17,688 nt of DNA from Candidatus Heimdallarchaeota archaeon (GCA_030638685.1 DAOWED010000075.1:1-17688), one strand, 5' to 3'; numbered from the stretch's first letter, positions 739 through 16,945 are shown. Notes: a model not told the origin generated them from the letters alone. Program-made: numbers and translations.

Positions 739-2118
739 TTATTCAAAATCAACATGTTCTTTGTTGGCATGAGAAAAATCAATCGAGAGAAAATCAGACC
801 ATTGAGGAGTAGAATAAGTTTTTTTCTGTTTAGCCAGATCATATCTTGAGAAAGGCATTGTAAGATGTCTATGTGCTCCAATGGGAGGTAAATATCTTCC
901 TTTTTCAAGCGATCTAGATTCAAAAACGGGAACTTTGGTTGCAGAGGGATCTTTAATTTTACACTTTTTACACTTGTAACCGGCATTAACACCATCACTT
1001 TCCATTCTTTTATTACAGGAGGGACAAGGTGGATTAACCAATCGAGAAAAGGGTGCAACTTCAATAACATCTAATCGTTCAATATTAAAAGTGGGTAATT
1101 CACTAGGGGAAACACCTCTAATACTTCCACCTACAATTAATCGGTCATCAGGTCGAAGTTCTTTGACGGTAGATCGAAATGATTTAGAAGGTTCATAAGC
1201 CAATGCATGAAATTGAGAACCATCACTTGATCGTTCTAAAGTAAGAATAGTGTGACCTCCAGCAATAATATCGGGTTCATTAACAACTTTTGCTTCAATT
1301 AAACTCACTTCGTAAGGCTCAAGTGAGGGGAAAGCATTCACTAAATGTTCATCGGTTCCTTGATTAGTTCTAAAAACACACCAACCTTCAATTTTTTCCA
1401 GTTGTTTAATCACAGAATTGGCTGAAATAAGGAGATTAGCAGACTCTCCTCTGATTCCGTAAAGAACAGGATCGGGTCCATTTGGTACGGAAGCAATTCG
1501 ACCAGTATCAGAATCATATGAAGAAAAGGTTTGAAAAGAAGAATCATCGAGTCTAATAAAAGATTCACGGTCAATTCTTCGCTTAGTACCTCTATTATTA
1601 GCGATCCGGTACGCCAATAATTCATAAGTAAAGTCATTTTTTAGCTCATTGCCAATAGCTGCTAATGAGCCGATAAGACCTTGACCGGTTCCCTTGAAAG
1701 AATAGTAAACAGAGGGGTGATCAAGAAGAGAAATAGTTTCATCAATCGTTAAAACCTTAATTAACGCCCGTTGAGCAAAAGAAGATAACTCAGAGCCTAA
1801 TTCACCAACCAAAAGAATAAAACCGGGGTTAGTCATTTCATGATCAGCAGTGCGATTGAAAAGCCAAGTACTGAGTTCGTTATGAATTTTTTCAAAATTA
1901 AGAGAGGAGGGGACCAAAAAAGTTAGAGCCACACTTCCATTACCTCGCGTCTTAAAAGGAACATTAGGGTTGTTTCGGATCAAGCGGGGGAAATCGAGGG
2001 GCTTCCAGCCCTTTTCTTTGAGAATAGAGAGAAGTGAAAAAGCAAGATGAGTTGTACAGTTACCAAGAGGACTATCAGTGTCATCAAAACCAAGAGTAAC
2101 TTTCACAAACTGAGACAA
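739..2118 (-). CDS. tiaS: tRNA(Ile2) 2-agmatinylcytidine synthetase TiaS
   Basis: The N-terminus VTLGFDDTDSPLGNCTTHL...FPRLIRNNPNVPFKTRGNGSVA matches the TiaS signature (IGIDDTDS..GMCTTYL, FPRLIRLNP.IPYKTRGNG). GLIGSLAAIG and PVLYGIRGES are conserved. The C-terminal zinc ribbon CPSCNKRMESDGVNAGYKCKKCK matches the A. fulgidus TiaS CPSCGRRMESAG..FRCKKC. TTG start with GGTGG 7 nt upstream. Confidence 0.9.
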   Translation of the reverse strand: MSQFVKVTLGFDDTDSPLGNCTTHLAFSLLSILKEKGWKPLDFPRLIRNNPNVPFKTRGNGSVALTFLVPSSLNFEKIHNELSTWLFNRTADHEMTNPGFILLVGELGSELSSFAQRALIKVLTIDETISLLDHPSVYYSFKGTGQGLIGSLAAIGNELKNDFTYELLAYRIANNRGTKRRIDRESFIRLDDSSFQTFSSYDSDTGRIASVPNGPDPVLYGIRGESANLLISANSVIKQLEKIEGWCVFRTNQGTDEHLVNAFPSLEPYEVSLIEAKVVNEPDIIAGGHTILTLERSSDGSQFHALAYEPSKSFRSTVKELRPDDRLIVGGSIRGVSPSELPTFNIERLDVIEVAPFSRLVNPPCPSCNKRMESDGVNAGYKCKKCKIKDPSATKVPVFESRSLEKGRYLPPIGAHRHLTMPFSRYDLAKQKKTYSTPQWSDFLSIDFSHANKEHVDFE

Positions 2119-3243: not shown

Positions 3244-3969
3244 CTACTTACCAAACAATCTTGAAAAGCGTTTCTTGACTGCTTGACGCTTCAGATAAGC
3301 AATTGCTTCTGTAGGATTAAGTTCTTTTGGACAAGCTTCACCGCAATTAAACGCCGTGTGACATCGCCATACACCATGATTACCATTGATTAACCCTATT
3401 CTTTCATCGGTCATTGCATCACGGCTATCTCTTACAAACCTAAAAGCCTTCAGAAGAGCTGCTGGTCCGAGATATTCTGGATCAGTCCATACTGTTACAC
3501 ACGAAGAGTAACATGAACCACACAAGATACAATCAATTGAGTTGCCCATTAGTTCTTTTTCCTCAGAAGACTGGATCACTTCTTTTTCCAGCGATTTCTT
3601 CAGGATTACAAAAGGATTCACTGCTCTGATCTTTGAAAAGAATGGCTCCATGTCTATTACTAGGTCTTTTATTATTGGATAGAAAGGTAGAGGTTCTATT
3701 TTTATTGTACCAGTGTAGAAGGATATCTGTTCTTGACAAGCTAGTACATATTTCCCATTAACGTATGCTGCATCAGATCCACATATACCGGCTCTGCATG
3801 CAAATCTAAAGGCTAAACTTCCATCCAAGTTTTCCATGATGTCGAATAATCCTTCAAGAAGAGTTTTACCCTTTTTACGATCCACTTTAAAGTCTTCCCA
3901 GTAGGAACCTTGTTCAGCGTTTTCGGGGTCAAATCTTTTAATTCTAAAAATTACTTGTTCACTCATCAT
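3244..3969 (-). CDS. sdhB: Succinate dehydrogenase / fumarate reductase iron-sulfur subunit
   Basis: Three cluster motifs are present: CRAGICGSDA...C (2Fe-2S), CILCGSCYSSC (4Fe-4S) and CHTAFNCGEACPK (3Fe-4S type). I prefer the ATG at 3969 (MMSEQ...) with GGAGTGAT directly upstream and 8 nt after the sdhA TAG. The tracked start at 4005 would overlap sdhA by 28 nt. Confidence 0.9.
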   Translation of the reverse strand: MMSEQVIFRIKRFDPENAEQGSYWEDFKVDRKKGKTLLEGLFDIMENLDGSLAFRFACRAGICGSDAAYVNGKYVLACQEQISFYTGTIKIEPLPFYPIIKDLVIDMEPFFSKIRAVNPFVILKKSLEKEVIQSSEEKELMGNSIDCILCGSCYSSCVTVWTDPEYLGPAALLKAFRFVRDSRDAMTDERIGLINGNHGVWRCHTAFNCGEACPKELNPTEAIAYLKRQAVKKRFSRLFGK

Positions 3970-3977
3970 TATCACTC

Positions 3978-5699
3978 CTAGTATTTTCTCTCCTCTGGTT
4001 CCCAAATTGAGAGGTCCACCTTTGAATATGATATTTTGCAGGTATCATTCTTGACATCGTAATGAGCCATGGTATGTTTCATGAACTTTTTGTCATTTCT
4101 TTTCATGAAGTCAGTTCTGCAATGTGAGCCTCTAAATTCTTCACGTTTGAGTGCTCCTTCAACGATGACTTCTGCTAAATGTAGTTGTCCACCAAGCATA
4201 TACAATCTGGCTAATTCCCAGTTATAGATTCTACCAGTATACTTGACCTTAATTTTCTTGTAGCGTTCCTTAAGGTCCTTAATAGTTTCTTGTGCTTTTG
4301 TTATGCCTTCCTTATTACGGAAAACACCTAGGTTCTTACTCAATACTTTTTGCATTTCAGCCATGAGTTTAAAGCCATCTTCTGACCCTTCACCATTGAA
4401 GAGATTTTGAATATTTGCTTCAACTTCATCTGCTTCTTTTTGGAGTACTTCTAATGCGTCATCATCCACTTTATTTGCTTCTACAAACTCAGAAGTTGAA
4501 ACACCTGAGATTTTACCAAAAACACAGCATTCGAGTAAACTGTTTCCTCCTAGACGATTAGCTCCATGAACAGAAATACAACTGCATTCACCTGCGGCAT
4601 ACAACCCCGTCATTTCAGATTCAGTCTTATCATTAACTGAAATTCCACCCATTGTATAGTGAGTAGAGGGTCTAATAGGTGCGGGTTCCTCTATCAAATC
4701 TGTTCCAGCAAAACGAATTGCAAGTTCTCTAACTTGAGGTAAGCGGCTTAGAATTTGTTCAGCAGGAAGATGAGTTAAGTCCAGTTCAACATAATCACCA
4801 TCGGGTCCACATCCTCTTCCTTCATTTATTTCAGTCTGGATTGATCGTGCAACAATATCTCGAGGAGCTAGTTCCATTTTATCAGCGGCATAATTTTTCA
4901 TGAAACGCTCTCCATCCTTGTTTCTTAGATAGCCACCTTCTCCTCTTGCTGCTTCTGAAAGAAGAACAGCATTTGTTGCCAAACCAGTTGGATGAAATTG
5001 TACAAATTCCATATCTTTCAGAGGTACACCTTTGAAGTAGGGCAATACAAAACCAAATCCACTATTATGCCAAGAATTAGTAGTGTCCTTGAACACTCTT
5101 CCGGCTCCTCCAACTGCAAAAATAACTGCAGATGCTTGGAAAATTTCTAACTTTCCAGTAATGAGATTTATTGCTACTACTCCTTTGATTTTATTCTCTT
5201 TTTCACCAATTGAAAGAACTATTCGGTCTTCATACATAGGAACTTCGTGGTATAAACATTGTTCATACAACCCCATCATTATTACAGCACCTGTTTTATC
5301 GGTTGAATAACAAGTTCGAGGATATCCTGCTCCACCAAAAGGTCTTTGAGCTATTTTTCCATCCTCTGTTCTTGAAAAGGGTATTCCCAGTTTATCAAGC
5401 TCAAGTATCCTTGGGATAGCTTGTTCTGTCATTGCCAGAACAGCTTTTTGATCAGCAAGATAATCAGATCCTTTTGTAGTATCAAATCCGTGTCTTTCAG
5501 CAGAATCATCTTCTGCTACATTAGCTAAAGCAGCATTGATTCCGCCTTGTGCAGCAGAACTATGAGAACGATATGCTTGAGTAATTGAAACGGTTGCTAC
5601 ATCTTTTCCTCTTTGAGCCGCTTCTACTGCGGCGGAAAGACCAGCCAGACCTGTTCCAACTATCAAAATATCATGTTTAAAGATTTCAACATCAGCCAT
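3978..5699 (-). CDS. sdhA: Succinate dehydrogenase / fumarate reductase flavoprotein subunit
   Basis: DILIVGTGLAGLSAA is the FAD dinucleotide-binding motif. RSHSSAAQGGINAA carries the His used for covalent FAD in SdhA/FrdA. HPTG, RLGGNSL and EFRGSHCRTDF are conserved family blocks. At 573 aa the length is typical. Confidence 0.95.
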   Translation of the reverse strand: MADVEIFKHDILIVGTGLAGLSAAVEAAQRGKDVATVSITQAYRSHSSAAQGGINAALANVAEDDSAERHGFDTTKGSDYLADQKAVLAMTEQAIPRILELDKLGIPFSRTEDGKIAQRPFGGAGYPRTCYSTDKTGAVIMMGLYEQCLYHEVPMYEDRIVLSIGEKENKIKGVVAINLITGKLEIFQASAVIFAVGGAGRVFKDTTNSWHNSGFGFVLPYFKGVPLKDMEFVQFHPTGLATNAVLLSEAARGEGGYLRNKDGERFMKNYAADKMELAPRDIVARSIQTEINEGRGCGPDGDYVELDLTHLPAEQILSRLPQVRELAIRFAGTDLIEEPAPIRPSTHYTMGGISVNDKTESEMTGLYAAGECSCISVHGANRLGGNSLLECCVFGKISGVSTSEFVEANKVDDDALEVLQKEADEVEANIQNLFNGEGSEDGFKLMAEMQKVLSKNLGVFRNKEGITKAQETIKDLKERYKKIKVKYTGRIYNWELARLYMLGGQLHLAEVIVEGALKREEFRGSHCRTDFMKRNDKKFMKHTMAHYDVKNDTCKISYSKVDLSIWEPEERKY

Positions 5700-6422: not shown

Positions 6423-6926
6423 TCAATCTATATTTAATTCAAACACGTGATCAGCTAAACCTTTGATAGCAACTGAAAAACCGGGATCAAAACCGGCTAC
6501 AGCAACCTCTTTCCCTTTTTCCTTAAGTTTCATTATAATTGGTGAAATACGTGCATCTCTAGAACAGATTAAGGTTAAATCGGTTGTTCCTTTATGATAT
6601 TGCTCCAAAGCATGAATCCCCATAGTTAGAGAAAGATCCCCGTGTGAAACAATTGGAGTATAACCAGAGTTAACTACTGCATCCATTAAACCATTGGAAG
6701 CTTTCTGATCAAGGAAGACTTTCTTTTCAACGATGGCACCTAAGAAGTTGGCAACCTCATTAATATCCTCAAGTTTAACTCGATGTCCTTTTACTGTGCG
6801 TAATATATTAGGTCCATCTACAAAGATAACTATTTTTTTTTCTCTTTTAAATAGAGATTTTAGAGTAGTCCACCTGCTAGATAACGTAGGTGATTGATCG
6901 TCTTTTTCTAAATTCATTTTAATCAC
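6423..6926 (-). CDS. NYN / LabA-like (PIN-related nuclease fold) domain protein
   Basis: KIVIFVDGPNIL (the N-terminal Asp motif of NYN domains), SHGDLSL, and LTLICSRDARISPIIMKLKEKGKEVAVAGF...LADHVFEL match the NYN pattern (vLvSgDsDf.pl...lr..Gk.V.v.g...l...ad.f..l). The second Asp of the SgDsD block is Arg here. The tracked GTG start at 6926 overlaps the upstream gene by 8 nt. An alternative ATG at 6917 (MNLEK...) is preceded by AGTGAT and overlaps that gene's stop codon (TAAAATG). Confidence 0.7.
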   Translation of the reverse strand: MIKMNLEKDDQSPTLSSRWTTLKSLFKREKKIVIFVDGPNILRTVKGHRVKLEDINEVANFLGAIVEKKVFLDQKASNGLMDAVVNSGYTPIVSHGDLSLTMGIHALEQYHKGTTDLTLICSRDARISPIIMKLKEKGKEVAVAGFDPGFSVAIKGLADHVFELNID

Positions 6927-8865
6927 TAGTCGTTTCTGAAGCGCTTATCAAACTATCAGGAGGCGTCATTTGTTCGTTCAAACGAACTACCGTGGTATCC
7001 TCGAGAGTTTCTGTTGTCACAAAACCAAATAATTCTAATTCAGCTACTGACTTTCGGACAACAGCAGGATGCATGGTAAGCATACGAGCAATATCCTGTT
7101 CCTTTAATTCAGAACTCAGTCCGTGCAGAAGGAAAATAATCATGTATTTTTGATCATTAACAAGATAGTTTTGAAGATAGGAGCCGAGTTCTTCCAAATG
7201 AACCAATTCATTTTGGTAAGAAACGAGTTTTTGTTCTAACTCATCTTTAACCTCAACATTCATTGTAATTTTGCCTTCATATCCTGACAATTCCTCTTTT
7301 AGAGTTGTAAGTTCGGTTTCAAGAACGCTCTTTTCTTCAATCATCAGTTCATGTTTGGAAAGAGAAGAATTGAATTCATCTTGGATGGAAGTTTTTTCAG
7401 TGGAAACCGCATCATATTTTTCTTGTATTGCGTCTAATGAAGTAGTAAATTCCTCCTTTTCTTTAGCAAGAGAAGAATAGTCATTCTTTACTCGATTAAT
7501 TTCGCTTTCCGTTTCTGAGAGTGATGCCTTCAATTCGGTTAGTGAACTTTCATATTCAGCTTTTTGAGTTGTAGATTCCGACATAATGCGTTCTCTTTCA
7601 GAATCCCATTGGCTTTGAATCTTAGAAATTTCGGTTGGGAACACTTCTTCACTAACTGTTGATTCTGACTCCAAGGATTGAAGTTTTTCATGATAAATTT
7701 GATTTTGTGCATCCAAAGCAGTCTTCTCTGATTCTAATTGAGAATGGGTCTTTTCAAGTTCGGTTAATTTATTTTCCACTGAAGTTTTGACTTCTCTAAG
7801 CTCGGTTAACTCATCGTTCAATTTAGTTGTTTCTTGATCAAGATTAAGTAATCTTGTTTCTAAACCATTCTTTTCTGTAGAAACAGTTTTGTGAGCAGCT
7901 TCTAACTGAGTTAGTTTCTCATTCACTGAAATACTATCTGTTTCACTGCTCTCCATTCTTACTTTCACTTGTGAAAGCTCTAAGTTAAGAGTTCTAATCT
8001 CTTCATTCTTACTAACCATTTCATTTCTAACACTGAACTGTTCTTCCCTTGATTTTTCAAGTTCTTCTTGAAGTGATTTAAAAGCATCACTTTGCTCCTT
8101 ATACTGTTGACTGATTAATTCTCGTTCTCTATTGCTATAATCAGAAAGTTGATTCCTTAAGGTTTTTAGTTCTTCTTGTTGACGATCTATTGTTGCTTTA
8201 AAGCGGGAGATGTCATTTTGTGTATCATCAATGTGTGTCTCCCTATCACCTAAAGCTTCCTGCATCTCTTCTTGCTCAAGACGCATTTGCATCAAAGTTG
8301 CTCCAAGCTGCATATTTTGGCTTTCAAGCCTTTCAATTCCGGCTTCAAGATTAGTTATTTCTGAATTTTTGAGTCTATTTTCTTCACTCAAAGAATTCAT
8401 TTGGTCGACAAGATCCACGTTTTCAGTGGATAGATCAGAGACTGTTTCTGACTGTTCAACAAGAGAGGCTTGATATTGAGCTACTCGTGCTTCTGACAAA
8501 CTGCTTTCAACAGGAGATTGTGTTTGTAAACGTCGGAGTTCTTCTAAAAATTCAGCCTCTATAACGTTTCCTTGTGCTAGTCCTGTTTCAATTCCCTCGC
8601 GTATCTTAGAACCTGATTCTGTCTCAATTTTGAGATAAACGGTTCTTAAGAAATGTATCAAACCATCCTTAAATCGGTTTGAAATTTCAGCAATTTCAGA
8701 GGCAGGATATTGTGAAACTCCAGGAGTTAGTGAGCTTGCTCTTAATTCCTCAGCTTTAGCTCTTAACTGGTCTTCATGCAATAATCTTTGATCTCTCATA
8801 TCTTTCAAATAGTCAAGAATTACTTCTCGAATCACTGTTACTCTGATTTCTTGAAAATGTTCCAT
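6919..8865 (-). CDS. Long coiled-coil protein (648 aa) with an N-terminal helical domain and a C-terminal winged-helix (MarR/ArsR-like) domain
   Basis: Residues ~130-560 are E/K/Q/L/S/T-rich heptad sequence with recurring units, for example VNEKLTQLEAAHKTVSTEKNGLETR and VENKLTELEKTHSQLESEKTALDAQ. The C-terminus KYMIIFLLHGLSSELKEQDIARMLTMHPAVVRKSVAELELFGFVTTE..VVRL looks like a wHTH. GGTG lies 7 nt upstream of the ATG. Confidence 0.75.
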   Translation of the reverse strand: MEHFQEIRVTVIREVILDYLKDMRDQRLLHEDQLRAKAEELRASSLTPGVSQYPASEIAEISNRFKDGLIHFLRTVYLKIETESGSKIREGIETGLAQGNVIEAEFLEELRRLQTQSPVESSLSEARVAQYQASLVEQSETVSDLSTENVDLVDQMNSLSEENRLKNSEITNLEAGIERLESQNMQLGATLMQMRLEQEEMQEALGDRETHIDDTQNDISRFKATIDRQQEELKTLRNQLSDYSNRERELISQQYKEQSDAFKSLQEELEKSREEQFSVRNEMVSKNEEIRTLNLELSQVKVRMESSETDSISVNEKLTQLEAAHKTVSTEKNGLETRLLNLDQETTKLNDELTELREVKTSVENKLTELEKTHSQLESEKTALDAQNQIYHEKLQSLESESTVSEEVFPTEISKIQSQWDSERERIMSESTTQKAEYESSLTELKASLSETESEINRVKNDYSSLAKEKEEFTTSLDAIQEKYDAVSTEKTSIQDEFNSSLSKHELMIEEKSVLETELTTLKEELSGYEGKITMNVEVKDELEQKLVSYQNELVHLEELGSYLQNYLVNDQKYMIIFLLHGLSSELKEQDIARMLTMHPAVVRKSVAELELFGFVTTETLEDTTVVRLNEQMTPPDSLISASETTSD

Positions 8866-9050: not shown

Positions 9051-9656
9051 TTACCATTCATCATCTTCTTTTTCTTCACTACCTGCTTCAAAAGGATCAT
9101 GAGCATCATCTTCTGGGATAATAGCGTATGGATCATCTTCAAGAATTCTTTCGATATTATCTTCCTTAACAAGTTGAGCTAATTTCTTGCGATGATTTGT
9201 TTTCTTTTTTGCTGTAGGGTTTATTTTCAGTTCAGGATTTTCAGTTATCCAGGCTTGAATTTGATCGAGTATTTCTTCTCGATCTAGTAAATCAAAGAAG
9301 TCATCATCATCTTCCAGTGTTATTTTAAAAATCCAACCAACGTATGGTTCCTCATTTAGCTCTTCTGGATTAAGCTTTATCTCTGAGTTTTCTTCAACTA
9401 TATTACATGGGAATGGAGATTTAACAACTAGTTCATCTTCAATTGAAGTAACCGTGAAAAACTCATCACCTTCATCAAATTCTTCACTCTCTGTGAAATA
9501 GATTGATATAATGTCCCCTAGAATCCTCTGAGCAAAATCAGTAATTCCTATGGAATACGAATCTTCTTCATAGTCTCGTTTTACCCATAAAATTTTATCA
9601 ATATAGGAAATGTCTTCTGGTAAATCTAAATCATTGACATCCATTCTTTTCACCAT
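9051..9656 (-). CDS. Glycine-cleavage H-protein-like (lipoyl-domain fold) protein lacking the lipoyl-lysine, with a basic/acidic C-terminal extension
   Basis: IGITDFAQRILGDII, SPFPCNIVEEN..LNPEELNEEPYVGWIFKI match GcvH blocks (VGITDHAQ..LGD, APVSGEIV..N..L...PELVN..PY..GWIFKI). The position of the lipoylated Lys (ESVK) reads TSIE, with E73 at nt 9438-9440. About 70 extra C-terminal residues end in ...EDDAHDPFEAGSEEKEDDEW. An alternative start at 9644 (MDVND) has GGTGA 5 nt upstream. Confidence 0.7.
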   Translation of the reverse strand: MVKRMDVNDLDLPEDISYIDKILWVKRDYEEDSYSIGITDFAQRILGDIISIYFTESEEFDEGDEFFTVTSIEDELVVKSPFPCNIVEENSEIKLNPEELNEEPYVGWIFKITLEDDDDFFDLLDREEILDQIQAWITENPELKINPTAKKKTNHRKKLAQLVKEDNIERILEDDPYAIIPEDDAHDPFEAGSEEKEDDEW

Positions 9657-10874: not shown

Positions 10875-12203
10875 TTATTGCAGCATTGAGCTTATTTCTT
10901 TAAATGTTTGATCCAAGGCTTCAAGTGTATGATCCAATAAGTCCTTTTTATGTTCTGATGAAAGTGCACCTAAACCTCCTCTAACAAAGACACCTTTGTT
11001 TATCAAGCTCATCTGATGAAAAGTGTTCAAGTTTGGTAGGTTTGTTTTTTTGCTTTTTATTTTTTCTAATGAATTATAATTTATTGACATCAAAGAAGCT
11101 GCTCCTGATATTTTTACAGGTAAGGAATTATCACTAACCAAATCCTTTATGCTTTTTACGAAATCTTCACCAGTTTTGTTTAGGGTGTCATAGAAAGCAG
11201 ACCCTCTTTCTTTCAAAGCATTCAAGGTTGCTAATCCAGTAGATGAACTTAAAGGATTTCCACTAAAAGTTCCGCCTCCTACCCAGACAGATTCTCCATT
11301 TTCTGGATTAGCTATTGCCATTATCTCCTTTTTTCCACCATATGCACCGATCGCTAATCCTCCTCCTATAATCTTACCAAGACAAGTTAAATCAGGAGTA
11401 ACCCCAAAATAACCTTGAGCTGAAGAATAGCTTAACCGAAAGCCGGTTATTACTTCGTCAAATATTAGTACTGCACCATACTTGGTTGTTAAGTGTCTCA
11501 CTGTTTGTAAAAACTCTTTTGAAGCTGCTTCTACTCCACCTGATATTAACACCGGTTCAAGGATTACAGCAGCTATTTCATCACCAAATTGCTCAAAGCA
11601 TTTCTTTATTTCGTCAATATCATTATAGCTACAAGAAATAAGGTTTGGATCCTTCACAAGACCTCTGTACTTAACGCCAAATGGAGGACTTATATCTTTG
11701 AAAAGCTGGGAATTCCCTCCATGCCAGCCCCCTTGCATTTTAACAACTAATGAACGATGAGTAAATCCTCTTGCTAATCTCACCGAGTACGATGTTGCTT
11801 CAGAACCAGAACTACAAAATCTAAGTTGTTCAATGCTAGGTGTTGCTTTTCTTATCTCTTCCCCTAACTTAAGAGCTCGTTCGTTAACTGTTCCAAAATG
11901 GGTTCCTTCATGAGTTGCTTCTACTATTGCATCAATAAGTATGTCAGGTGTATGTCCTAGAATGTTGGAATAATGCCCTATCCAGAAATCTATCAATCTT
12001 TGTCCATCTTCTGTATAGAGAAAAGCTCCTTTAGCTTTTTTAATGAACGGCGGATAAAGACCTAATTTAGGAAAATCCCATGTTCTAATATTGTGACTTA
12101 TTCCTCCTGGAAAAAGGTCAACTGCTCTCTGCCAAAGTTCAGAAGAGCGTTTATTGTTGTTAAGATAAATTTCATTATTATCTAAGTTGTCCATACACGT
12201 CAA
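10875..12203 (-). CDS. Class-III PLP aminotransferase, glutamate-1-semialdehyde 2,1-aminomutase (HemL)-like paralogue
   Basis: FPGG...R, SSGSEATSYSVRLARGFT, FDEVITGFRLSYSSAQGYFGVTPDLTCLGKIIGGGLAIGAYGGKKEIM (PLP-Lys in LGKIIGGG) and GTFSGNP align block by block with E. coli HemL. The canonical PGGVNSPVRAF is replaced by PGGISHNIRTWDFPKLGLYPP, so the substrate may differ. The tracked start is TTG at 12203. An ATG alternative is at 12194. Confidence 0.8.
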   Translation of the reverse strand: MTCMDNLDNNEIYLNNNKRSSELWQRAVDLFPGGISHNIRTWDFPKLGLYPPFIKKAKGAFLYTEDGQRLIDFWIGHYSNILGHTPDILIDAIVEATHEGTHFGTVNERALKLGEEIRKATPSIEQLRFCSSGSEATSYSVRLARGFTHRSLVVKMQGGWHGGNSQLFKDISPPFGVKYRGLVKDPNLISCSYNDIDEIKKCFEQFGDEIAAVILEPVLISGGVEAASKEFLQTVRHLTTKYGAVLIFDEVITGFRLSYSSAQGYFGVTPDLTCLGKIIGGGLAIGAYGGKKEIMAIANPENGESVWVGGGTFSGNPLSSSTGLATLNALKERGSAFYDTLNKTGEDFVKSIKDLVSDNSLPVKISGAASLMSINYNSLEKIKSKKTNLPNLNTFHQMSLINKGVFVRGGLGALSSEHKKDLLDHTLEALDQTFKEISSMLQ

Positions 12204-12311: not shown

Positions 12312-13997
12312 ATGGAATCATCGAATAAAAACGCCCTCAGAAAACAGATACTTATCTTCATCCTTCTTCTTGTTAATATCATAGTAAGGCTCCTTCCAAC
12401 TTTGAGTTCAAGAACTCTCTGGGGAGTGGATGCTTGGGACTATATTTATTATATTAAACAATCAATTGAGGGTTCCCAGATTATTTCTCCGGAGTTACAT
12501 GTTCCCGGTTTCTATATTCTGATGACATCCTACTGTCATATTGTTGACATCGATCCTGAAATAGCTTACCTTTTTCTTCCTCAATTAGTTCTAGGCCTTC
12601 TTACTTTAGAGATGTTCATTCTTGCAAGAGTTCTAACCAAAGATGATTCAGCTGGAATAATAGCTCTCCTTTTAACTAGTAGCGGTGGAATTTATGTTCT
12701 TAGAACAATGCTTGTTATTCCAGAATCTTTTGGTTTAAGTTTAATCCCCCTTGGTTTATGGTTATACTGGAAAATGCTTACTATTAGAACTAAAGAGTGG
12801 TCAATTTCATTTCTTATGATCGGTACTACTATTGTTTCTATGCATCATTTATCTGGAGGAGTTTTTCTATGTGCGATAAATTTCATTACTCTTTGGTTCA
12901 GTCTTAACAAGAACCATCGAAAAGATATTTGGGCAAAGGTTATCTTCTTGAACGTTGTAACGTTGATTATTTGGTCTATTACAAGCAAAAACTATCCTTT
13001 TATCGTTGCTCAAAGAGGGTCTCAGTATTTTCTAATTCTAGCACTAGTGATGATTGGTATTTCCATCATTCTTTTTTCAACTAGAGCTATGAAGCCTAGA
13101 GTAATCAAATTAATTCAGTCCGAACTCGTTCAACAATCTTGGTCTTACGTTCTATTCATAACAATTATTCTTCTTTCTTTATGGGTTGGCCTGCGAGCTG
13201 ATTTATCTTTCAAAGTTATAGCTTCATTTCTTCCTGTATCTCTTTTTATTCCCTTTACTCTTGTATGTATCCAAAAAGATTCATTTCAACTTCAACATGC
13301 TAGATCGTTTTTCCTTGGGATGATTTTTTCATATTTCATACTCTTTTCATTAATTGCCTTTAATCCATCAATACAGACACTATTAGGCAGATATGCAGAA
13401 TTCTTGATACAGATTGCTGTTCTTGGAACAGCTATGGGAGCTTCTATAAAACTGAAAGATAAGAACGGAAGGAGAAAATTATATGGATTCACTTTAGCAA
13501 TATTAATGATTACCAACTTTCCTCTTGCATATCCTGATCCCGACATTTGGATGGGTACAACTTTCAATTACTATAGTGAAGAATTAGAGGCAGCAGAATG
13601 GCTTGAAATAAGGATTGATGATCTTGGACTTGATCCAGAAATATCTATAATTGATACGGATAATCGTTTGGGAGTGATGCTTAGGGGGCACGTGGGATTA
13701 AATAGCAGTTGTGGAGAGCCAAGTGATAGCGAACTTGCTTACCTTATTCGTGAAAAACTATCTTTAATTGAAATTGCTTCATACCACTTTTCAAATCATT
13801 CTTTTATTTTCCTTTCACAAGTAATAGTGGATTCGACTTTTGCTATGGGTAAATTTGGGCATGGTCGAACTTTTTCAACAAGTGATATTGCACTTGAAGT
13901 AAGTTCCTACTTTATTTATGCCTTAAATCAACACCCTCAACTTGAAAAAGTGCTAGACTTAGGTAGCGTTTGGATATGGGAGATTAACAATAGCTGA
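12312..13997 (+). CDS. Large polytopic membrane protein with a C-terminal soluble domain, a possible GT-C-fold glycosyltransferase (PMT_2/ArnT/STT3-like architecture)
   Basis: About 12-13 hydrophobic helices are followed by a ~150-aa soluble domain. The first loop after TM1 carries the acidic/aromatic motif LWGVDAWDYIYYIKQ, reminiscent of the first-loop Asp motif of GT-C enzymes. No WWDxG motif is present, so it is not a canonical AglB/STT3. Confidence 0.4.
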   Translation: MESSNKNALRKQILIFILLLVNIIVRLLPTLSSRTLWGVDAWDYIYYIKQSIEGSQIISPELHVPGFYILMTSYCHIVDIDPEIAYLFLPQLVLGLLTLEMFILARVLTKDDSAGIIALLLTSSGGIYVLRTMLVIPESFGLSLIPLGLWLYWKMLTIRTKEWSISFLMIGTTIVSMHHLSGGVFLCAINFITLWFSLNKNHRKDIWAKVIFLNVVTLIIWSITSKNYPFIVAQRGSQYFLILALVMIGISIILFSTRAMKPRVIKLIQSELVQQSWSYVLFITIILLSLWVGLRADLSFKVIASFLPVSLFIPFTLVCIQKDSFQLQHARSFFLGMIFSYFILFSLIAFNPSIQTLLGRYAEFLIQIAVLGTAMGASIKLKDKNGRRKLYGFTLAILMITNFPLAYPDPDIWMGTTFNYYSEELEAAEWLEIRIDDLGLDPEISIIDTDNRLGVMLRGHVGLNSSCGEPSDSELAYLIREKLSLIEIASYHFSNHSFIFLSQVIVDSTFAMGKFGHGRTFSTSDIALEVSSYFIYALNQHPQLEKVLDLGSVWIWEINNS

Positions 13998-14020: not shown

Positions 14021-14644
14021 CTATTCACCTAATTCTTCCAAGATCTTAGCTAACTGAGGAGGTAATGCTTCGTTTTCTTTAAGACGTGAAAGATCGCTTA
14101 TCAAATCAATGTCATACCAACTAGCGATGCTTTCAATTTCAGTATAACGAAAATGATTCTCTTGGAATTGAGAAAGGTAGAGACTTGCTGAATGGGGTCC
14201 ATATGAAAATCTAAAAGTTGTACTAGCTCTTGCAGCAAGTATACTTGTTCCACCATCATGAGAAGGACAAATAACCGCATCATTTACTCGAAGAAGATAA
14301 TAAATAGTTGTTAGTAGTCTTGATGAAAGGTTAGGGAGGTCACCCATCACTACTATGTATTTTTCCGGATTTAATTGTTTAACGGCTTTAGAAATTGCAT
14401 TATTTAGATCAAATCCTTCATCATAGATAACTTTGAAAGAATAGTCTGTAAGTTCATCCGGTAAATTTCTATCCGCGGTAAGTAAATAGACTTCATAAGG
14501 TATAGAAAGTTCATTTATTGTATCAAATACTCGTTTCGTCATAGTTAGAACTAAACTATCTATAGATTGTGAATTACTTGGACCAGAACGTAACCTTTGC
14601 TTTGAGCTCGATGAACCACGCACAGGAACCAGTATTGTTACCAT
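14021..14644 (-). CDS. cofC: 2-phospho-L-lactate (or PEP) guanylyltransferase CofC, F420 biosynthesis
   Basis: ILVPVRGSSSSKQRL (PVK...aKsRL), DEGFDLNNAISKAV, IVVMGDLPNL, ICPSHDGGTSIL, FSYGPHSASLY and YDIDLISDL follow the CofC/FbiD conserved block order. Start ATG lies 6 nt after the upstream gene's stop. Confidence 0.8.
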   Translation of the reverse strand: MVTILVPVRGSSSSKQRLRSGPSNSQSIDSLVLTMTKRVFDTINELSIPYEVYLLTADRNLPDELTDYSFKVIYDEGFDLNNAISKAVKQLNPEKYIVVMGDLPNLSSRLLTTIYYLLRVNDAVICPSHDGGTSILAARASTTFRFSYGPHSASLYLSQFQENHFRYTEIESIASWYDIDLISDLSRLKENEALPPQLAKILEELGE

Positions 14645-14650
14645 TCTTTC

Positions 14651-15415
14651 TCACTTTAGTCTATCTTTAATCTCACTAAATAGCAGTGGATTTGAGAGAG
14701 CTGCTCTACCTATAGAAATAGCTGAGATACCTATATTTAACATTTTTAGTGCAATTCCAGTTGTGGTCACAGAATTATTACCGATTATTTTTCCTTGAAA
14801 CAAATCAGCAAAGTCTTTAAGCTTTGTAAGGTCCGCTTCTGGTTTACCGGGCAACATCGCATCTACATGAAGAATGTCAACTGAAGATAAATCATTCACG
14901 AAATCTTTTGGATTTTGGATCACTGAACTTCTGATCTTTAAAGATAAGGGAACTTTTACCCGCTTTTTATATTCATTAATGAAATCATTAAGAAATGAAA
15001 TGTTTGATAACAAGTTTTGACCAATATTAAGTTCTAAAAACTCTGGTTGTCGACAATGAGCATTTAATTCTATAAAGTCAAAAAAAGGAGAAAGGGCAGA
15101 AGCTGCTTTTGCAAAGTTTTCAGGGGAAGAAGCACGGATGTTTATACCTTTCATTACTTTCAAATTCTTAAGTTTAGAAACTTCTAACTTAACTTTTGTG
15201 AGTAAACCTTCGATTTCTTCAACTGTTCCCCACACAAATTCTTTTCTCCCTCTCTTGATTATTTGCTGTGAAGCAAGCTCTGATCGAGCATCTACACTTA
15301 TCCCACCAAGTATAACCCCTTGAGCACCTTGAAGGACTATTTTTCGGCAAAAATCACCATCAGTATATCCCGTCATTGGTGCTAGAAATAGTTGAGGAAA
15401 AGTGGTTTTATCCAT
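14651..15415 (-). CDS. Dus/DHOD-like FMN-dependent TIM-barrel oxidoreductase of unknown substrate
   Basis: LAPMTGYTDGDF (Dus: LAPMaGvTD..fR), IELNAHCRQPE (Dus/DHOD: iDlN.GCP / ElN.SCP with the catalytic Cys), SLKIR (FMN-binding Lys), LHVDAM, IGNNSV and AISIGRAALSNPLLF (Dus: MiGRgal.nPwlF). I prefer the ATG at 15415 (MDKTTF...), 1 nt after the cofD TAG (15417-15419). The tracked start at 15451 overlaps cofD by 35 nt. Confidence 0.7.
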   Translation of the reverse strand: MDKTTFPQLFLAPMTGYTDGDFCRKIVLQGAQGVILGGISVDARSELASQQIIKRGRKEFVWGTVEEIEGLLTKVKLEVSKLKNLKVMKGINIRASSPENFAKAASALSPFFDFIELNAHCRQPEFLELNIGQNLLSNISFLNDFINEYKKRVKVPLSLKIRSSVIQNPKDFVNDLSSVDILHVDAMLPGKPEADLTKLKDFADLFQGKIIGNNSVTTTGIALKMLNIGISAISIGRAALSNPLLFSEIKDRLK

Positions 15416-15416
15416 C

Positions 15417-16346
15417 CTAATCAACTGGTAAGGATAGAAGATAAGAAGCAAGTATTTCTTTAGTGACTAAACTTGTCATTAGCGTTGGAAAAGAGTAAAT
15501 ATTGAGATCATATTTTTGCTCTAGTTTATGTTTCAGTGCTTCATCAGCAACATCAATTACTAAATTTTTACAAAAAGGCTCATAATATGAAGCTACTCCA
15601 TCTGGAGAAACAGATATTCCTTGACTTTGCATAAGCTCAGCAGCTGGTCCACTTACTGGATTTGTACCAATTATCGGTGAGACTGTGATTACTTTGTGAC
15701 GATTTTTCTTCAAGTAATTGCCTATCTCTTTGATACCAATTATAGGATAGATTGAAGTTATTGGATTACTAGGGCCTATAATTATCCTTTCAGCCATTTC
15801 CAGAGCATTCAAGACCTCCTCTGTGGCTTTTGCCGTTTCCAAGCCTTTGAATAGTATTTCATCAACTAATATTTTTCCCCGATGCTTCACCCAATATTCT
15901 TGAAAGTGTATTATTCGATTTGAGCTTTTTATCCATGTTTGAATAGAATCATTTGAAGGAGGAAGTATTTTCGCTTTTATTCCAAGTTGTTTTGAAATCA
16001 TAGCTGTAAACTCAGTTGGTGAATGACCGTTCTTCAGACTATCTCCTCTAAGTATACATAATGCCAAATCTCTATCGCCAAGATTAAACCAAGGGTCCTC
16101 ATTTAATTCTCGTAGTGCTCCTATGCAATTATTGGTATCATCCTTCACTCCCCAGAATTTTTCTAAGTCTAGCCAGTCAGATAATAAATAAAGTAAAGTG
16201 TCTATGTCTGGAGACACAGGTATAGAATACCAAGAATAATCATCAGCAATGTTACCTATTATTGTTAGATCTTCTTCTTGGAGCTGTAACCTTAGACCTT
16301 GAATAAGTTTCGGGGTCCCCGTACCACCAGATAAAACAGTTATCAT
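15417..16346 (-). CDS. cofD: 2-phospho-L-lactate transferase CofD (LPPG:FO transferase), F420 biosynthesis
   Basis: MITVLSGGTGTPKLIQGL, SPDIDTLLYLLSD, LGDRD, GIKAKILPPSND, IHFQEYWV, IIGPSNPITSI.PI, VSPIIGTNPVSGPAAELM and TLMTS match methanogen CofD nearly block for block. Confidence 0.9.
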   Translation of the reverse strand: MITVLSGGTGTPKLIQGLRLQLQEEDLTIIGNIADDYSWYSIPVSPDIDTLLYLLSDWLDLEKFWGVKDDTNNCIGALRELNEDPWFNLGDRDLALCILRGDSLKNGHSPTEFTAMISKQLGIKAKILPPSNDSIQTWIKSSNRIIHFQEYWVKHRGKILVDEILFKGLETAKATEEVLNALEMAERIIIGPSNPITSIYPIIGIKEIGNYLKKNRHKVITVSPIIGTNPVSGPAAELMQSQGISVSPDGVASYYEPFCKNLVIDVADEALKHKLEQKYDLNIYSFPTLMTSLVTKEILASYLLSLPVD

Positions 16347-16378: not shown

Positions 16379-16945
16379 TTATGGAACAACTAAACGATAA
16401 ATAATAGATTCTTCAGCAAATACACTGCTTCTGACTATTCTTACAACATCTCCAGCCAACGCATGAATGGTTTTTATTGCAGGATCGTTTTCAAAAATTT
16501 TGGGTAAGTCTCTAACTCCAATGTTGTATCTTGTAGTCATTTCTTCGATTTCTTCTGAAGTTAGTATTTCATGAAGTGGAACTAAGTCATGCTTGAATAA
16601 ATCAAAAATAGGGTGAGAAGATGATAAAATTTCTATTCCTGTACTTTCAGCTTCCTTTTTAGCATAATGAGTAAATCGCCTTCTGCTTACTAATACTGCA
16701 GAACTTAATCCTTCCTTCTCGAGTTTTTCGTTTACTTCCCTTACAAAAGAAATACCTACAACTTCTTTCATAGGTATTCTAACAATCATTTTTTCAGAAG
16801 TTTTATCGGAATCAGCATAGATATCTAGTGATTTTTCGGTCTCTTCATAAGAAGTGACTGTGTAACCTCTTCTTTTAAGAATATCAGTTATACCTCTTTT
16901 GTATCTTTCAATTTCGTCTTCTGTGAGTCTTTGATTACTACTCAT
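16379..16945 (-). CDS. rpoH: RNA polymerase subunit Rpo5/H with a eukaryotic Rpb5-like N-terminal domain (full-length Rpb5 architecture)
   Basis: The C-terminal 72 aa (HDLVPLHEILTSEEIEEMTTRYNIGVRDLPKIFENDPAIKTIHALAGDVVRIVRSS...IIYRLV) are a clear RpoH/Rpb5_C domain. The N-terminal ~116 aa (nt 16598-16945) align with the human/yeast Rpb5 N-domain as I recall it: ILKRRGYTVT vs CHDRGYLVT, VVGISFVRE vs KVGIKTIKV, AVLVSRRRFTHYAKK vs ALIVVQQGMTPSAKQ, IEIL...HDLVP vs ILEQF...HELVP. GAGGAT lies 5 nt upstream of the ATG. Confidence 0.85.
   Translation of the reverse strand: MSSNQRLTEDEIERYKRGITDILKRRGYTVTSYEETEKSLDIYADSDKTSEKMIVRIPMKEVVGISFVREVNEKLEKEGLSSAVLVSRRRFTHYAKKEAESTGIEILSSSHPIFDLFKHDLVPLHEILTSEEIEEMTTRYNIGVRDLPKIFENDPAIKTIHALAGDVVRIVRSSVFAEESIIYRLVVP

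Follow-up and report, generated by a model that had tools for sequence, protein, structure and literature searches.

An FMN-type TIM barrel of the MJ0144 family, encoded between cofD and cofC in a Heimdallarchaeia locus, is a strong candidate for the enzyme forming the lactyl unit of F420

CofC is the guanylyltransferase that activates 2-phospho-L-lactate (2-PL) or phosphoenolpyruvate (PEP), and CofD is a transferase that attaches the activated unit of the side chain to FO. In 2001, Graupner and White reportedly found that 2-PL occurs naturally in methanogens. The premise from which the sequence-only reading of this locus started, that the CofB step is unassigned, holds (PMC8498797). That source also summarizes earlier work that reported, for methanogen extracts, a GTP-dependent phosphorylation of L-lactate to 2-PL, the lactate being supplied by a lactaldehyde dehydrogenase (CofA); should this route operate, a PEP reductase would be unneeded. 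An unknown archaeal dehydro-F420-0 reductase ('CofX') has also been postulated (PMC8498797, PMC6450877). Bashiri 2019, one of the studies postulating it, looked only for nitroreductase folds near cofE and reported that the M. jannaschii CofC accepts PEP (PMC6450877), and the M. jannaschii CofD has a relaxed specificity for the PEP-derived intermediate (PMC8764529).

In the RNA-modification literature the MJ0144 family goes by the name 'archaeal Dus' (PMC3674756), a label that the sequence-only reading had missed. It is treated there as an eighth subfamily of the dihydrouridine synthases (PMC3674756, PMC9775027, PMC13136901), and in 2026 was still described as 'not well-characterized to date' (PMC13136901). 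Methanosarcina also carries a DusB of the bacterial type (PMC3674756). In the literature searched, no paper was found that ties the MJ0144 family to F420, nor any experimental report of activity for one of its members.

The window, meaning the whole 17,688-nt stretch of DNA that was analysed, comes from a Heimdallarchaeia (Kariarchaeaceae-like) MAG. The features of the cof unit and its upstream neighbor are as follows.

16379..16945, minus strand: rpoH (RNA polymerase subunit H); Pfam RNA_pol_Rpb5_C 80.9 bits, Mrr_cat 33 bits, NCBIfam PRK09570 88 bits
15417..16346, minus strand: cofD; TIGR01819 289.3 bits (cut-off 257.45), Pfam CofD 152 bits
15416..15416, minus strand: cofD/barrel junction, 1 nt; cofD stop TAG at 15419-15417 and barrel ATG at 15415-15413, by direct reading
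14651..15415, minus strand: 254-aa FMN-type TIM barrel, MJ0144 / 'archaeal Dus' family, proposed F420 side-chain ene-reductase; TIGR00736, Pfam Dus, AF2 model
14645..14650, minus strand: barrel/cofC junction, 6 nt; barrel stop TGA at 14653-14651 and cofC ATG at 14644, by direct reading
14021..14644, minus strand: cofC; TIGR03552 111.4 bits (cut-off 105), Pfam CofC 70.8 bits, ORF map

The order and coordinates of the three genes, as first read, are borne out by the ORF map, and the 1-nt and 6-nt gaps claimed between them by direct reading of the minus strand; all four motifs reported for the barrel (LAPMTGYTD, ELNAHCRQPE, SLKIR and GRAALSNPLLF) occur in its translation. The barrel ORF begins at TTG 15451 in the ORF listing (266 aa), and its 254-aa ATG form is 100% identical to the deposited protein (P0001). 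The unit ends with cofC; the gene that follows (12312-13997) is convergent. The rpoH gene, co-directional and 32 nt upstream of cofD, encodes an Rpb5_C domain that follows an Mrr/PD-(D/E)XK-like N-domain; it also lies immediately upstream of cofD in loci L004, L028, L082-84 and L087, and is context outside the F420 pathway. The arrangement cofD-barrel-cofC is not a matter of chance: other Asgard loci and the Thermoproteota show the same succession of genes, again a few bases apart or overlapping by a few bases.

Synteny was surveyed in 80 loci from GTDB species-representative genomes, the best 80 of at least 583 by similarity to the query. cofD is found within 2.6 kb upstream and on the same strand in 57 of these, and in 51 of the 63 that have enough upstream DNA to judge. 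The linked loci comprise all of those from Asgard archaea (7), one each from Hydrothermarchaeota, Thermoproteota and Methanothermococcus, and 41/41 evaluable loci from Methanobacteriales, which are not independent observations. When neighbors in the 80 best loci are ranked by the number of lineage groups in which they occur, cofD (5/9) and cofE (4/9) stand at the top. The association with cofC and cofD to which the sequence-only reading had pointed is thus upheld, with cofD the most widely conserved neighbor, in five order- or phylum-level groups, and with complete cofE-cofD-barrel-cofC operons. The latter, joined by 4-nt overlaps, are found in Thermoproteota (L024), Freyarchaeia (L076) and Baldrarchaeia (L081); a Jordarchaeales locus (L092) has a divergent cofC followed by cofE-cofD-barrel, and the order cofD-barrel-cofC is found in the Heimdallarchaeia loci L028, L057, L082-84 and L087. 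In Methanobacteriales and Methanococcales the order is cofE-cofD-arfA-barrel, arfA encoding GTP cyclohydrolase III. This matches a published layout in which MTH1019 and MTH1018 (cofE and cofD) are separated by two genes from MTH1015 (AtwA) (PMC3087415). No link to cofD was detected in Archaeoglobi, Methanosarcinales, Methanocellales and Methanoperedens (0/12 evaluable loci).

By sequence, the barrel belongs to the MJ0144 family (TIGR00736; UniProt Q57608). Its match to the TIGR00736 model, 'MJ0144 family RNA dihydrouridine synthase-like', runs the full length (residues 14-246 on model positions 1-230 of 231), with 178.8 bits and E=1.2e-52, below the curated cut-off of 218.7. Members from Methanosarcinales and Freyarchaeia score 197-206 bits (182-206 bits when Hydrothermarchaeota is included), and among the members scored only a Methanococcus protein passes the cut-off. 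The Pfam Dus model is matched with 45.7 bits (cut-off 20.4), covering only residues 74-164. Identification as a dihydroorotate dehydrogenase (DHOD) was rejected, as Pfam DHO_dh (PF01180) gives 19.3 bits against a cut-off of 27, and identification as PyrD likewise, the NCBIfam PyrD models giving 17-35 bits against cut-offs of 269-330.

The AF2 model (pLDDT 95.9) is a bare barrel, the final helix of which closes the chain at residue 254. The best PDB matches are Dus, followed by OYE, DHOD-B and dihydropyrimidine dehydrogenase (DPD), and Dus are the closest relatives in both sequence and structure (DusB 6ei9, E=1.7e-19; 1vhn and 3b0p, TM about 0.7). Dus, the OYE ene-reductases, DHOD-B and DPD are all FMN enzymes that reduce C=C bonds conjugated to carbonyl or carboxyl groups. 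Solved Dus chains are longer (305-350 aa), and their alignments with the barrel run out at about residue 230-260 of these chains; in the AF2 model, compared with these chains, the barrel contains no helical tRNA-binding domain. The sequence-only reading would have been contradicted if the barrel had proved to be a tRNA Dus present throughout the archaea and bearing a surface for tRNA, and the loss of this domain goes against such an identity.

Conservation was assessed in an alignment of 60 family members, in which 22 invariant columns are common to the barrel and the other members, including those from methanogens. Three stretches of the barrel are of particular interest.

15236..15253, minus strand: RGRKEF, residues 55-60, basic motif, nearly invariant in the alignment and specific to the family
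15041..15070, minus strand: ELNAHCRQPE loop, residues 116-125, with the putative general acid Cys121; aligned to DINMGCPAKK of E. coli DusB
14771..14782, minus strand: GNNS, residues 212-215, with N213, N214 and S215 invariant; aligned to IANGDI of DusB

Within the ELNAHCRQPE loop, E116, H120, C121 (codon 15055-15053), R122, Q123 and E125 are invariant in the 60 members. C121 and the KxR motif (K160, R162) are invariant and aligned to the C, K and R of DusB, and the FMN-phosphate loops are also kept; by its alignment, GNNS corresponds to the FMN-phosphate loop ANGD(I) of Dus. Two of the three Dus signature motifs are changed, again invariantly in the 60 members: NxGCP is replaced by N118-A-H-C-R122 (NAHCR), and HxR by H183-V-D185 (HxD). 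The G-to-H and P-to-K/R changes of 'archaeal Dus' had already been described (Kasprzak 2012, PMC3674756). Profile positions 37-88, about 50 residues that include RGRKEF, could not be aligned to DusB or TM0096. F60 is invariant, R55, G56, R57 and E59 are conserved at 90% or more, and the motif is a candidate anion-binding (substrate) lid.

Given these observations, the proposal of the sequence-only reading that the barrel is a candidate F420 side-chain reductase is supported. A role in side-chain reduction, whether acting on PEP or on dehydro-F420-0, is somewhat better than an even bet (about 0.57). The barrel's fold, its retained catalytic residues, the loss of the tRNA-binding domain and the conserved place in operons are observations, and its substrate, stereochemistry and electron donor are predictions. 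The barrel would be an FMN-dependent ene-reductase dedicated to F420 biosynthesis, making the saturated L-lactyl unit through which the glutamate tail is attached to the deazaflavin FO. In a mechanism modeled on Dus and DHOD, N5 of reduced FMN would pass a hydride to C3, the methylene carbon of the enolpyruvyl group, the invariant Cys121 of the ELNAHCRQPE loop would protonate C2, and the family-specific invariant basic residues R57, R94, H120, R122, R162 and H183 may bind the phosphate and carboxylate groups. The electrons would probably arrive via the Cys-rich 'methanogenesis marker 9', as a partner or as a fusion domain, in methanogens and Hydrothermarchaeota; the Asgard archaea have no marker 9 nearby, and NAD(P)H, F420H2 or free FMNH2 are possible reductants there.

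As the likeliest single substrate we tentatively infer free PEP, which would be reduced to 2-PL, then activated by CofC with GTP and transferred by CofD to FO. PEP is preferred over dehydro-F420-0 because the absent piece of the pathway is the source of free 2-PL, and the Hydrothermarchaeota locus L001, in which the barrel adjoins cofD, can also be cited in its favor. We know of no described precedent for a PEP reductase reaction. The broader claim, that the entire 'archaeal Dus' family in methanogens, Archaeoglobi, Bathyarchaeia-type Thermoproteota and Asgard archaea is a PEP reductase (2-phospho-L-lactate synthase) and not RNA-modifying, is best regarded as doubtful at present. If it is true, the CofB gap, open since 2001 (about 25 years), would be closed, and the 2-PL versus PEP controversy would be reconciled, PEP being the metabolic origin and 2-PL the CofC substrate. 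The Dus tree would also lose its only archaeal branch, undercutting the argument that a Dus was present in LUCA.

Among the roughly 200 best matches with readable names, all named members come from F420-using anaerobic archaea, and none from Thermococci, Sulfolobales, DPANN, Bacteria, haloarchaea or ammonia oxidizers (Nitrososphaeria). Haloarchaea and Nitrososphaeria do make F420, so that the barrel, within this limited sample of names, cannot be universal for the F420 pathway. The family includes the hyperthermophilic Methanocaldococcus, Methanopyri and Archaeoglobi. Dihydrouridine is rare or absent in hyperthermophilic archaea (PMC7668247), and the presence of the family there counts for the F420 role and against an RNA Dus.

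The alternative that survives best keeps the F420 pathway and moves the reduction to a later step. CofC and CofD would build dehydro-F420-0 from PEP, and the barrel, as the postulated CofX, would reduce its enolpyruvyl group to the lactyl unit, a non-homologous stand-in for the FbiB nitroreductase domain that acts as MurB does after MurA. The synteny applies equally to this proposal, and the commonest partners, cofD and cofE, encode the enzymes that flank the step. In Methanobacteriales the barrel clusters with both of these genes and without cofC, which fits a step after CofD slightly better. The CofE proteins in barrel-bearing operons are of 249-304 aa and lack a nitroreductase domain; the CofE search returned single-domain proteins only, with no CofE-nitroreductase fusion. 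The use of PEP by the M. jannaschii CofC, the relaxed specificity of its CofD (PMC8764529) and the explicit prediction of a reductase by Bashiri 2019 (PMC6450877) point the same way. Set against them is the reported natural occurrence of 2-PL in methanogens, which points to a free 2-PL pool, and reduction after CofD is considered unlikely.

The main rival outside F420 biosynthesis would place the barrel, with the Cys-rich marker 9, in the biosynthesis of tetrahydromethanopterin (H4MPT) or another methanogen-type cofactor, the adjacency to cof genes reflecting a general clustering of cofactor genes. One candidate is the reductive step from the ribofuranosyl-aminobenzene intermediate to its ribityl form. 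Methanosarcinia and Methanocellia have the barrel and marker 9 as a fusion; the order in Methanosarcinales is barrel::marker 9 - CitG-like - DUF447, and the Methanocellales operon reads A2 - barrel::marker 9 - CitG-like - DUF447 - DmrX, its DmrX matching the TIGR02700 dihydromethanopterin reductase model with 302.8 bits (cut-off 251). The Hydrothermarchaeota locus L001 reads cofE-cofD-barrel-marker 9-CitG-like-DUF447-flavoprotein. In Methylobacterium, CitG-like and DUF447 genes are linked to methanopterin biosynthesis. This linkage to methanopterin genes and marker 9 in Methanosarcinia, Methanocellia and Hydrothermarchaeota is a caveat that the sequence-only reading had missed.

About seven methanopterin steps are without enzymes (PMC3087415), and the spread of the family among anaerobic archaea of the Wood-Ljungdahl type fits H4MPT as well as it does F420. 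However, the CitG-like and DUF447 genes are neighbors in only 3/9 lineage groups, compared with five for cofD and four for cofE. In Asgard archaea and Thermoproteota the barrel is flanked within the cof operon by cofD and cofC, and the vicinity contains no methanopterin genes. The arfA gene that adjoins it in Methanobacteriales and Methanococcales feeds flavin/deazaflavin and not pterin synthesis, and no bacterial (methylotroph) members occur among the named matches. The family is also present in Heimdallarchaeia, which to our knowledge are generally without the H4MPT pathway. A role in methanopterin biosynthesis is judged quite improbable.

Taken at its annotation, the barrel would be the dihydrouridine synthase for archaeal RNA (tRNA), a minimal Dus able to bind RNA either through a partner protein or with no helical domain, and its placement among cof genes would be incidental. 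Its closest relatives in sequence and structure are indeed Dus, it keeps the catalytic Cys, the KxR motif and the FMN loops, and it falls in the eighth Dus subfamily of the literature. In Archaeoglobi it follows Kae1-Bud32 (tRNA t6A enzymes), overlapping the end of that operon by 38 nt. The window protein is also basic (pI 9.24), but half of the family members have a pI <7. The lack of reported activity, the missing helical domain, the altered signature motifs and the unalignable segment bearing RGRKEF also speak against this annotation, as do the bacterial-type DusB of Methanosarcina and the restriction of the family to archaea of the F420/H4MPT type, hyperthermophiles included. It does not explain why a place in operons with cofD, cofC and cofE is conserved across phyla, and a true RNA Dus has little probability.

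It is least probable, and by some way on the improbable side, that the barrel is a consumer of F420, an F420H2- or FMN-linked oxidoreductase for an unrelated small molecule that is co-transcribed for its cofactor need. The cof synteny would also suit a cofactor-dependent enzyme, and the fusion of the barrel to a gamma-glutamyl-cyclotransferase-like domain in the P0134 cluster hints at other small-molecule chemistry, but the barrel lies between two biosynthetic genes with overlapping stops and starts in many phyla, its active-site residues are invariant in all lineages, suggesting a single conserved housekeeping substrate, and structure comparison reveals no known F420-binding fold.

A comparison with known systems places the proposed side-chain ene-reductase closest to Dus (PF01207, COG0042; DusB 6ei9, T. 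maritima TM0096 1vhn, T. thermophilus 3b0p), with which it shares the FMN TIM barrel, the Cys loop after beta-4, the KxR motif and the FMN-phosphate loops. Unlike Dus, it is a barrel without the C-terminal helical domain, has NAHCR for NxGCP and HxD for HxR, cannot be aligned over residues 37-88, and is set in F420 operons. The 'archaeal Dus' of Kasprzak et al. 2012 is the MJ0144 family and thus the barrel's own, its invariant residues being common to the methanogen members; unlike proteins that satisfy the curated model, the window barrel falls under the TIGR00736 cut-off, and the published name implies a function that is putative. With class 1 DHOD/DHOD-B and DPD it shares the FMN barrel and an active-site Cys that serves as acid/base on a C=C bond conjugated to a carbonyl, and the iron-sulfur partner subunits or domains through which DHOD-B and DPD receive electrons may be comparable to the pairing of the barrel with marker 9. 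Unlike DHOD, it scores below the Pfam DHO_dh threshold and has no pyr gene context.

In chemistry, the proposed reaction resembles that of the C-terminal nitroreductase domain of FbiB and its stand-alone bacterial homologues, in which FMN-dependent reduction of an enolpyruvyl C=C is coupled to cofE/cofD homologues (PMC6450877). The barrel cannot itself be an FbiB/nitroreductase-type dehydro-F420-0 reductase, as its TIM fold is unrelated; it is at most a functional analogue, and may act on free PEP instead of dehydro-F420-0. A further analogue is the MurA/MurB pair, in which a flavoenzyme reduces a PEP-derived enolpyruvyl unit, yielding a lactyl unit, although MurB, unlike the barrel, is an FAD enzyme of a different fold that uses NADPH and yields a D-lactyl ether.

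The barrel gene, which encodes an FMN-type TIM barrel, is the middle member of a co-directional three-gene unit on the minus strand, spanning 14021-16346, and the open reading frames bear out the order cofD, barrel, cofC proposed in the sequence-only reading:

15417-16346, minus strand: cofD, 309 aa; TIGR01819, 289 bits, over the cut-off
14651-15415, minus strand: barrel, 254 aa; TIGR00736 'MJ0144 family RNA dihydrouridine synthase-like protein', 178.8 bits, full length
14021-14644, minus strand: cofC, 207 aa; TIGR03552, 111 bits, over the cut-off

The tight coupling claimed for these genes also holds, with one base between the cofD stop codon and the barrel ATG and six between the barrel stop codon and the cofC ATG, and all four of the motifs that had been quoted (LAPMTGYTD, ELNAHCRQPE, SLKIR and GRAALSNPLLF) are found in the window translation. 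The rpoH gene lies 32 nt upstream of cofD and the gene beyond cofC is convergent; cofC is therefore the end of the unit. A promoter and terminator scan of the window (G+C about 35%) gave counts at the level of shuffled sequence, using patterns of bacterial consensus that are uninformative for an archaeal host. A deposited 'tRNA-dihydrouridine synthase [Candidatus Heimdallarchaeota archaeon]' matches the barrel at 100% identity and a Kariarchaeaceae protein at 82%, which marks the window as Asgard DNA. The remaining genes characterized in the window are as follows:

30-710, plus strand: 226-aa protein with a weak SNARE-domain match (PF05739, E=7.9e-5, 23 bits, under the 26.8 cut-off)
739-2118, minus strand: TiaS (tRNA agmatidine synthetase), an ordinary context gene
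3244-5699, minus strand: succinate dehydrogenase/fumarate reductase flavoprotein and iron-sulfur subunit pair, likewise ordinary context
6919-8865, minus strand: 648-aa protein
9051-9656, minus strand: 201-aa GcvH-like protein under the GcvH cut-offs, with additional C-terminal sequence
10875-12203, minus strand: HemL-like class-III aminotransferase, 344-350 bits, well under the hemL cut-offs of 398-527
12312-13997, plus strand: 561-aa hydrophobic, apparently polytopic membrane protein, its gene convergent on cofC
16379-16945, minus strand: rpoH, with an Mrr/PD-(D/E)XK-like N-domain and Rpb5_C, exceeding the usual archaeal RpoH length

The first of these could be a SNARE-like protein as reported for Heimdallarchaeia, or mere coiled-coil noise, while the real functions of the HemL-like and GcvH-like proteins probably differ from the annotated ones. 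The two large ORFs at 12312-13997 and 6919-8865 have no Pfam or NCBIfam match. Two-domain rpoH genes also stand directly upstream of cofD in other Heimdall- or Borr-type loci (L004 6417-6986, L028 6029-7012, L082 2989-3993 and L087 2398-3468), and recall the likewise two-domain eukaryotic Rpb5.

The family match that spans the barrel at full length is to TIGR00736 of NCBIfam. Its curated cut-off of 218.7 is reached by the Methanococcus member scored, and members from Methanosarcinales, Freyarchaeia and Hydrothermarchaeota score 182-206 bits. The Pfam Dus match is partial (residues 74-164, 45.7 bits), and assignment as a DHOD was rejected, with DHOD-family scores under threshold in both Pfam and NCBIfam. 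Across 60 aligned members 22 columns are invariant, among them E116, H120, C121, R122, Q123, E125, K160, R162, H183, D185, N213-N214-S215, S234 and R237; F60, also invariant, directly follows a near-invariant R55-G56-R57-x-E59. The AlphaFold2 model built from this alignment shows one (beta/alpha)8 barrel, at a mean pLDDT of 95.9. Its best relatives of solved structure, by profile search (DusB 6ei9, E=1.7e-19; TM0096 1vhn) and by Foldseek, are Dus enzymes, followed by Old Yellow Enzyme ene-reductases, DHOD-B and dihydropyrimidine dehydrogenase. Every one of them uses FMN in the reduction or oxidation of a C=C bond beside a carbonyl or carboxyl group. The window barrel has a pI of 9.24, but the family as a whole divides about equally, with a median of 7.7, and pI is uninformative here as an indicator of RNA binding.

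F420 is central to methanogenesis and anaerobic methane oxidation, and its biocatalytic uses are growing. According to a 2021 review, the 2-phospho-L-lactate (2-PL) behind the lactyl linker of archaeal F420 would derive from a lactate kinase, CofB, which has never been found (PMC8498797). Mycobacteria use phosphoenolpyruvate (PEP), and their FbiB has a nitroreductase domain that reduces the resulting dehydro-F420-0 intermediate; archaeal CofE is without such a domain, no nitroreductase folds were found near cofE in more than 1000 archaeal genomes, and a separate archaeal enzyme, 'CofX', was postulated (Bashiri et al. 2019, PMC6450877). Cognate archaeal CofC/CofD pairs, one of them from a Hydrothermarchaeota MAG, later proved highly specific for 2-PL, which restored 2-PL as the compound from which the archaeal route starts without settling where it comes from (Hasan et al. 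2022, PMC8764529).

For the synteny survey one genome per GTDB species was scanned, yielding at least 583 barrel relatives, and the best 80 loci by similarity to the query were retrieved. All ORFs of these loci were translated and searched with the window CofC and CofD, and neighbours were clustered and their representatives annotated with Pfam and NCBIfam. Among these best 80 of at least 583, 57 loci have a co-directional cofD no more than 2.6 kb upstream; for the 63 with enough upstream sequence the figure is 51. By lineage, this arrangement is found in 7/7 Asgard, 1/1 Hydrothermarchaeota, 1/1 Thermoproteota, 41/41 evaluable Methanobacteriales (one lineage, not 41 independent observations) and one Methanothermococcus loci, and in none of the 12 evaluable loci from Archaeoglobi, Methanocellales, Methanoperedens and Methanosarcinales.

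Neighbours of the barrel gene, in lineage groups out of nine (best 80 of at least 583 loci)
cofD: 5/9
cofE: 4/9
CitG-like: 3/9
DUF447: 3/9
cofC: 2/9
arfA: 2/9
A2 (AtwA, the MCR activation ATPase): 2/9

Gene orders around the barrel
cofE-cofD-barrel-cofC: L024 (Thermoproteota), L076 (Freyarchaeia), L081 (Baldrarchaeia; cofD and barrel overlap by 4 nt)
cofC divergent, then cofE-cofD-barrel: L092 (Jordarchaeales)
rpoH-cofD-barrel-cofC-M24 peptidase: Heimdallarchaeia L028, L057, L082-84, L087
cofE-cofD-arfA-barrel-A2-marker 9: L059 (Methanobacteriales)

The published numbering of MTH1019 (CofE), MTH1018 (CofD) and MTH1015 (AtwA) fits the Methanobacteriales order (PMC3087415). A survey from the cofE side found cofE-cofD-barrel in Jordarchaeales and two Bathyarchaeia cofE genes alone, so that clustering is not universal; the CofE homologue search returned single-domain CofE only, from Bathyarchaeia, Jordarchaeia and Freyarchaeia. 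The sequence-only reading had made the barrel a candidate F420 side-chain reductase and asked for its synteny with cofC and cofD, and the best 80 of at least 583 loci speak in favour of that role, short of proof. Among the best 150 cluster representatives there is no fusion of the barrel to CofC, CofD or CofE, only marker 9 fusions and one GGACT fusion. The latter is a metagenomic cluster (P0134, 10 members, 317-352 aa) with a gamma-glutamyl cyclotransferase-like (GGACT/AIG2) domain at the barrel C-terminus, which may be a second link to F420, whose tail is gamma-glutamyl.

The reading that we favour, with a probability of roughly one in three, is that the barrel is an F420 side-chain ene-reductase converting PEP to 2-PL. 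The protein keeps all that Dus/DHOD-type chemistry needs, in which FMNH2 supplies the hydride and a cysteine the proton that are added across a carboxyl-conjugated C=C. The RNA-binding domain is gone, and invariant basic residues have been acquired around the active-site loop. Within the F420 side-chain pathway, the enolpyruvyl group alone has such a C=C; free PEP would be reduced to 2-PL by the barrel and the product handed to CofC. Reduction of free PEP is favoured because archaeal CofC and CofD want 2-PL. Nearly as likely, and tentative in the same way, is action after CofD on dehydro-F420-0 to give F420-0, the CofX role, for which we know of no candidate since the 2019 proposal; the tighter tie of the methanogen barrel to cofD and cofE than to cofC slightly favours it. 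Both versions have to contend with the lactate phosphorylation reported earlier for methanogen extracts, with barrel genes that are not linked to cof genes in Methanosarcinia and Archaeoglobi, and with the apparent absence of the family, in a limited sample of named best matches, from two other groups of F420 makers, the haloarchaea and the ammonia oxidisers.

Reduction of methanopterin or another cofactor is an unlikely role, and the neighbourhoods that point to it are real evidence. In Methanosarcinales, Methanocellales and Methanoperedens, the barrel and a Cys-rich domain, 'methanogenesis marker 9' (TIGR03277), form one fusion protein (P0036, P0049 and P0092); marker 9 is a separate gene directly after the barrel in Hydrothermarchaeota (L001 8642-9211), follows A2 at about 2.4 kb downstream of the barrel in most Methanobacteriales (L059 10686-11180), and was found neither in the three Methanococcales loci nor in the Asgard loci or the window. 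It comprises about 110 aa with eight conserved cysteines and is without a Pfam family; a search of Pfam at E up to 10 matched no iron-sulfur or CCG-type family. Judging from those cysteines, marker 9 may, on the favoured F420 reading, be an electron-entry module in methanogens, and the pairing gives this orphan protein a functional partner. CitG-like and DUF447 genes follow the fusion in Methanosarcinales and Methanocellales, joined in the latter by DmrX (dihydromethanopterin reductase, TIGR02700, 302.8 bits), in the operon A2 - barrel::marker 9 - CitG-like - DUF447 - DmrX (L043 6093-11210, L014 5216-10274). This compact cluster of cofactor-related genes also nominates CitG-like and DUF447 for methanopterin steps. 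About seven methanopterin steps are without enzymes (PMC3087415). Hydrothermarchaeota L001 unites both gene sets, as cofE-cofD-barrel-marker 9-CitG-like-DUF447-flavoprotein.

A genuine RNA Dus is a somewhat poorer prospect. In Archaeoglobi the barrel follows dapF or overlaps the end of the Kae1-Bud32 operon, and the overlap lends weak support to such a role; in Archaeoglobaceae it amounts to 38 nt (L085 3495-5768, L006 6444-8717), in a long information-processing operon of eIF2-gamma, Rpb7, Spt4, S24e, S27ae, Kae1 and Bud32. Dihydrouridine is described as rare or absent in hyperthermophilic archaea (PMC7668247), and the family is nonetheless present in Methanocaldococcus, Methanopyri and Archaeoglobi. 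That the barrel is an F420-dependent enzyme working on something else is improbable, and the small remaining probability falls to other roles.

The operon evidence points to one small, easily expressed candidate protein for a step that a major cofactor pathway has been missing for 25 years; this gap thereby becomes directly testable, and the widely propagated 'tRNA-dihydrouridine synthase' annotation may be wrong. If the F420 side-chain reading is true, hundreds of archaeal genomes would carry an annotation in need of correction, accounts of how the Dus family evolved would have to be revised, the missing part for heterologous production of authentic, saturated F420 by the archaeal route would be in hand, and the marker 9 protein would acquire a functional context.

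The family was described as an eighth Dus subfamily, 'archaeal Dus', small, divergent and confined to Euryarchaeota, with NxGCP altered by G to H and P to K/R and HxR by R to D; the N-A-H-C-R and H-V-D of the window barrel are exactly these changes, and Methanosarcina also carries a bacterial-type DusB (Kasprzak et al. 2012, PMC3674756). Its type sequence in a 2022 paper is M. jannaschii Q57608 (PMC9775027), and a 2026 paper still calls it 'not well-characterized to date' (PMC13136901). In the literature searched, we found no experimental evidence for RNA activity of any member, and no paper assigning the MJ0144 family a function or tying it to F420. Canonical Dus chains have 305-350 residues, and alignments to them stop where their C-terminal helical domain starts, a domain that the window barrel lacks; conversely, its profile positions 37-88, RGRKEF included, have no alignment to DusB or TM0096. 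The barrel would be a functional variant among the FMN TIM-barrel ene-reductases, a known kind of enzyme within the Dus/DHOD superfamily.
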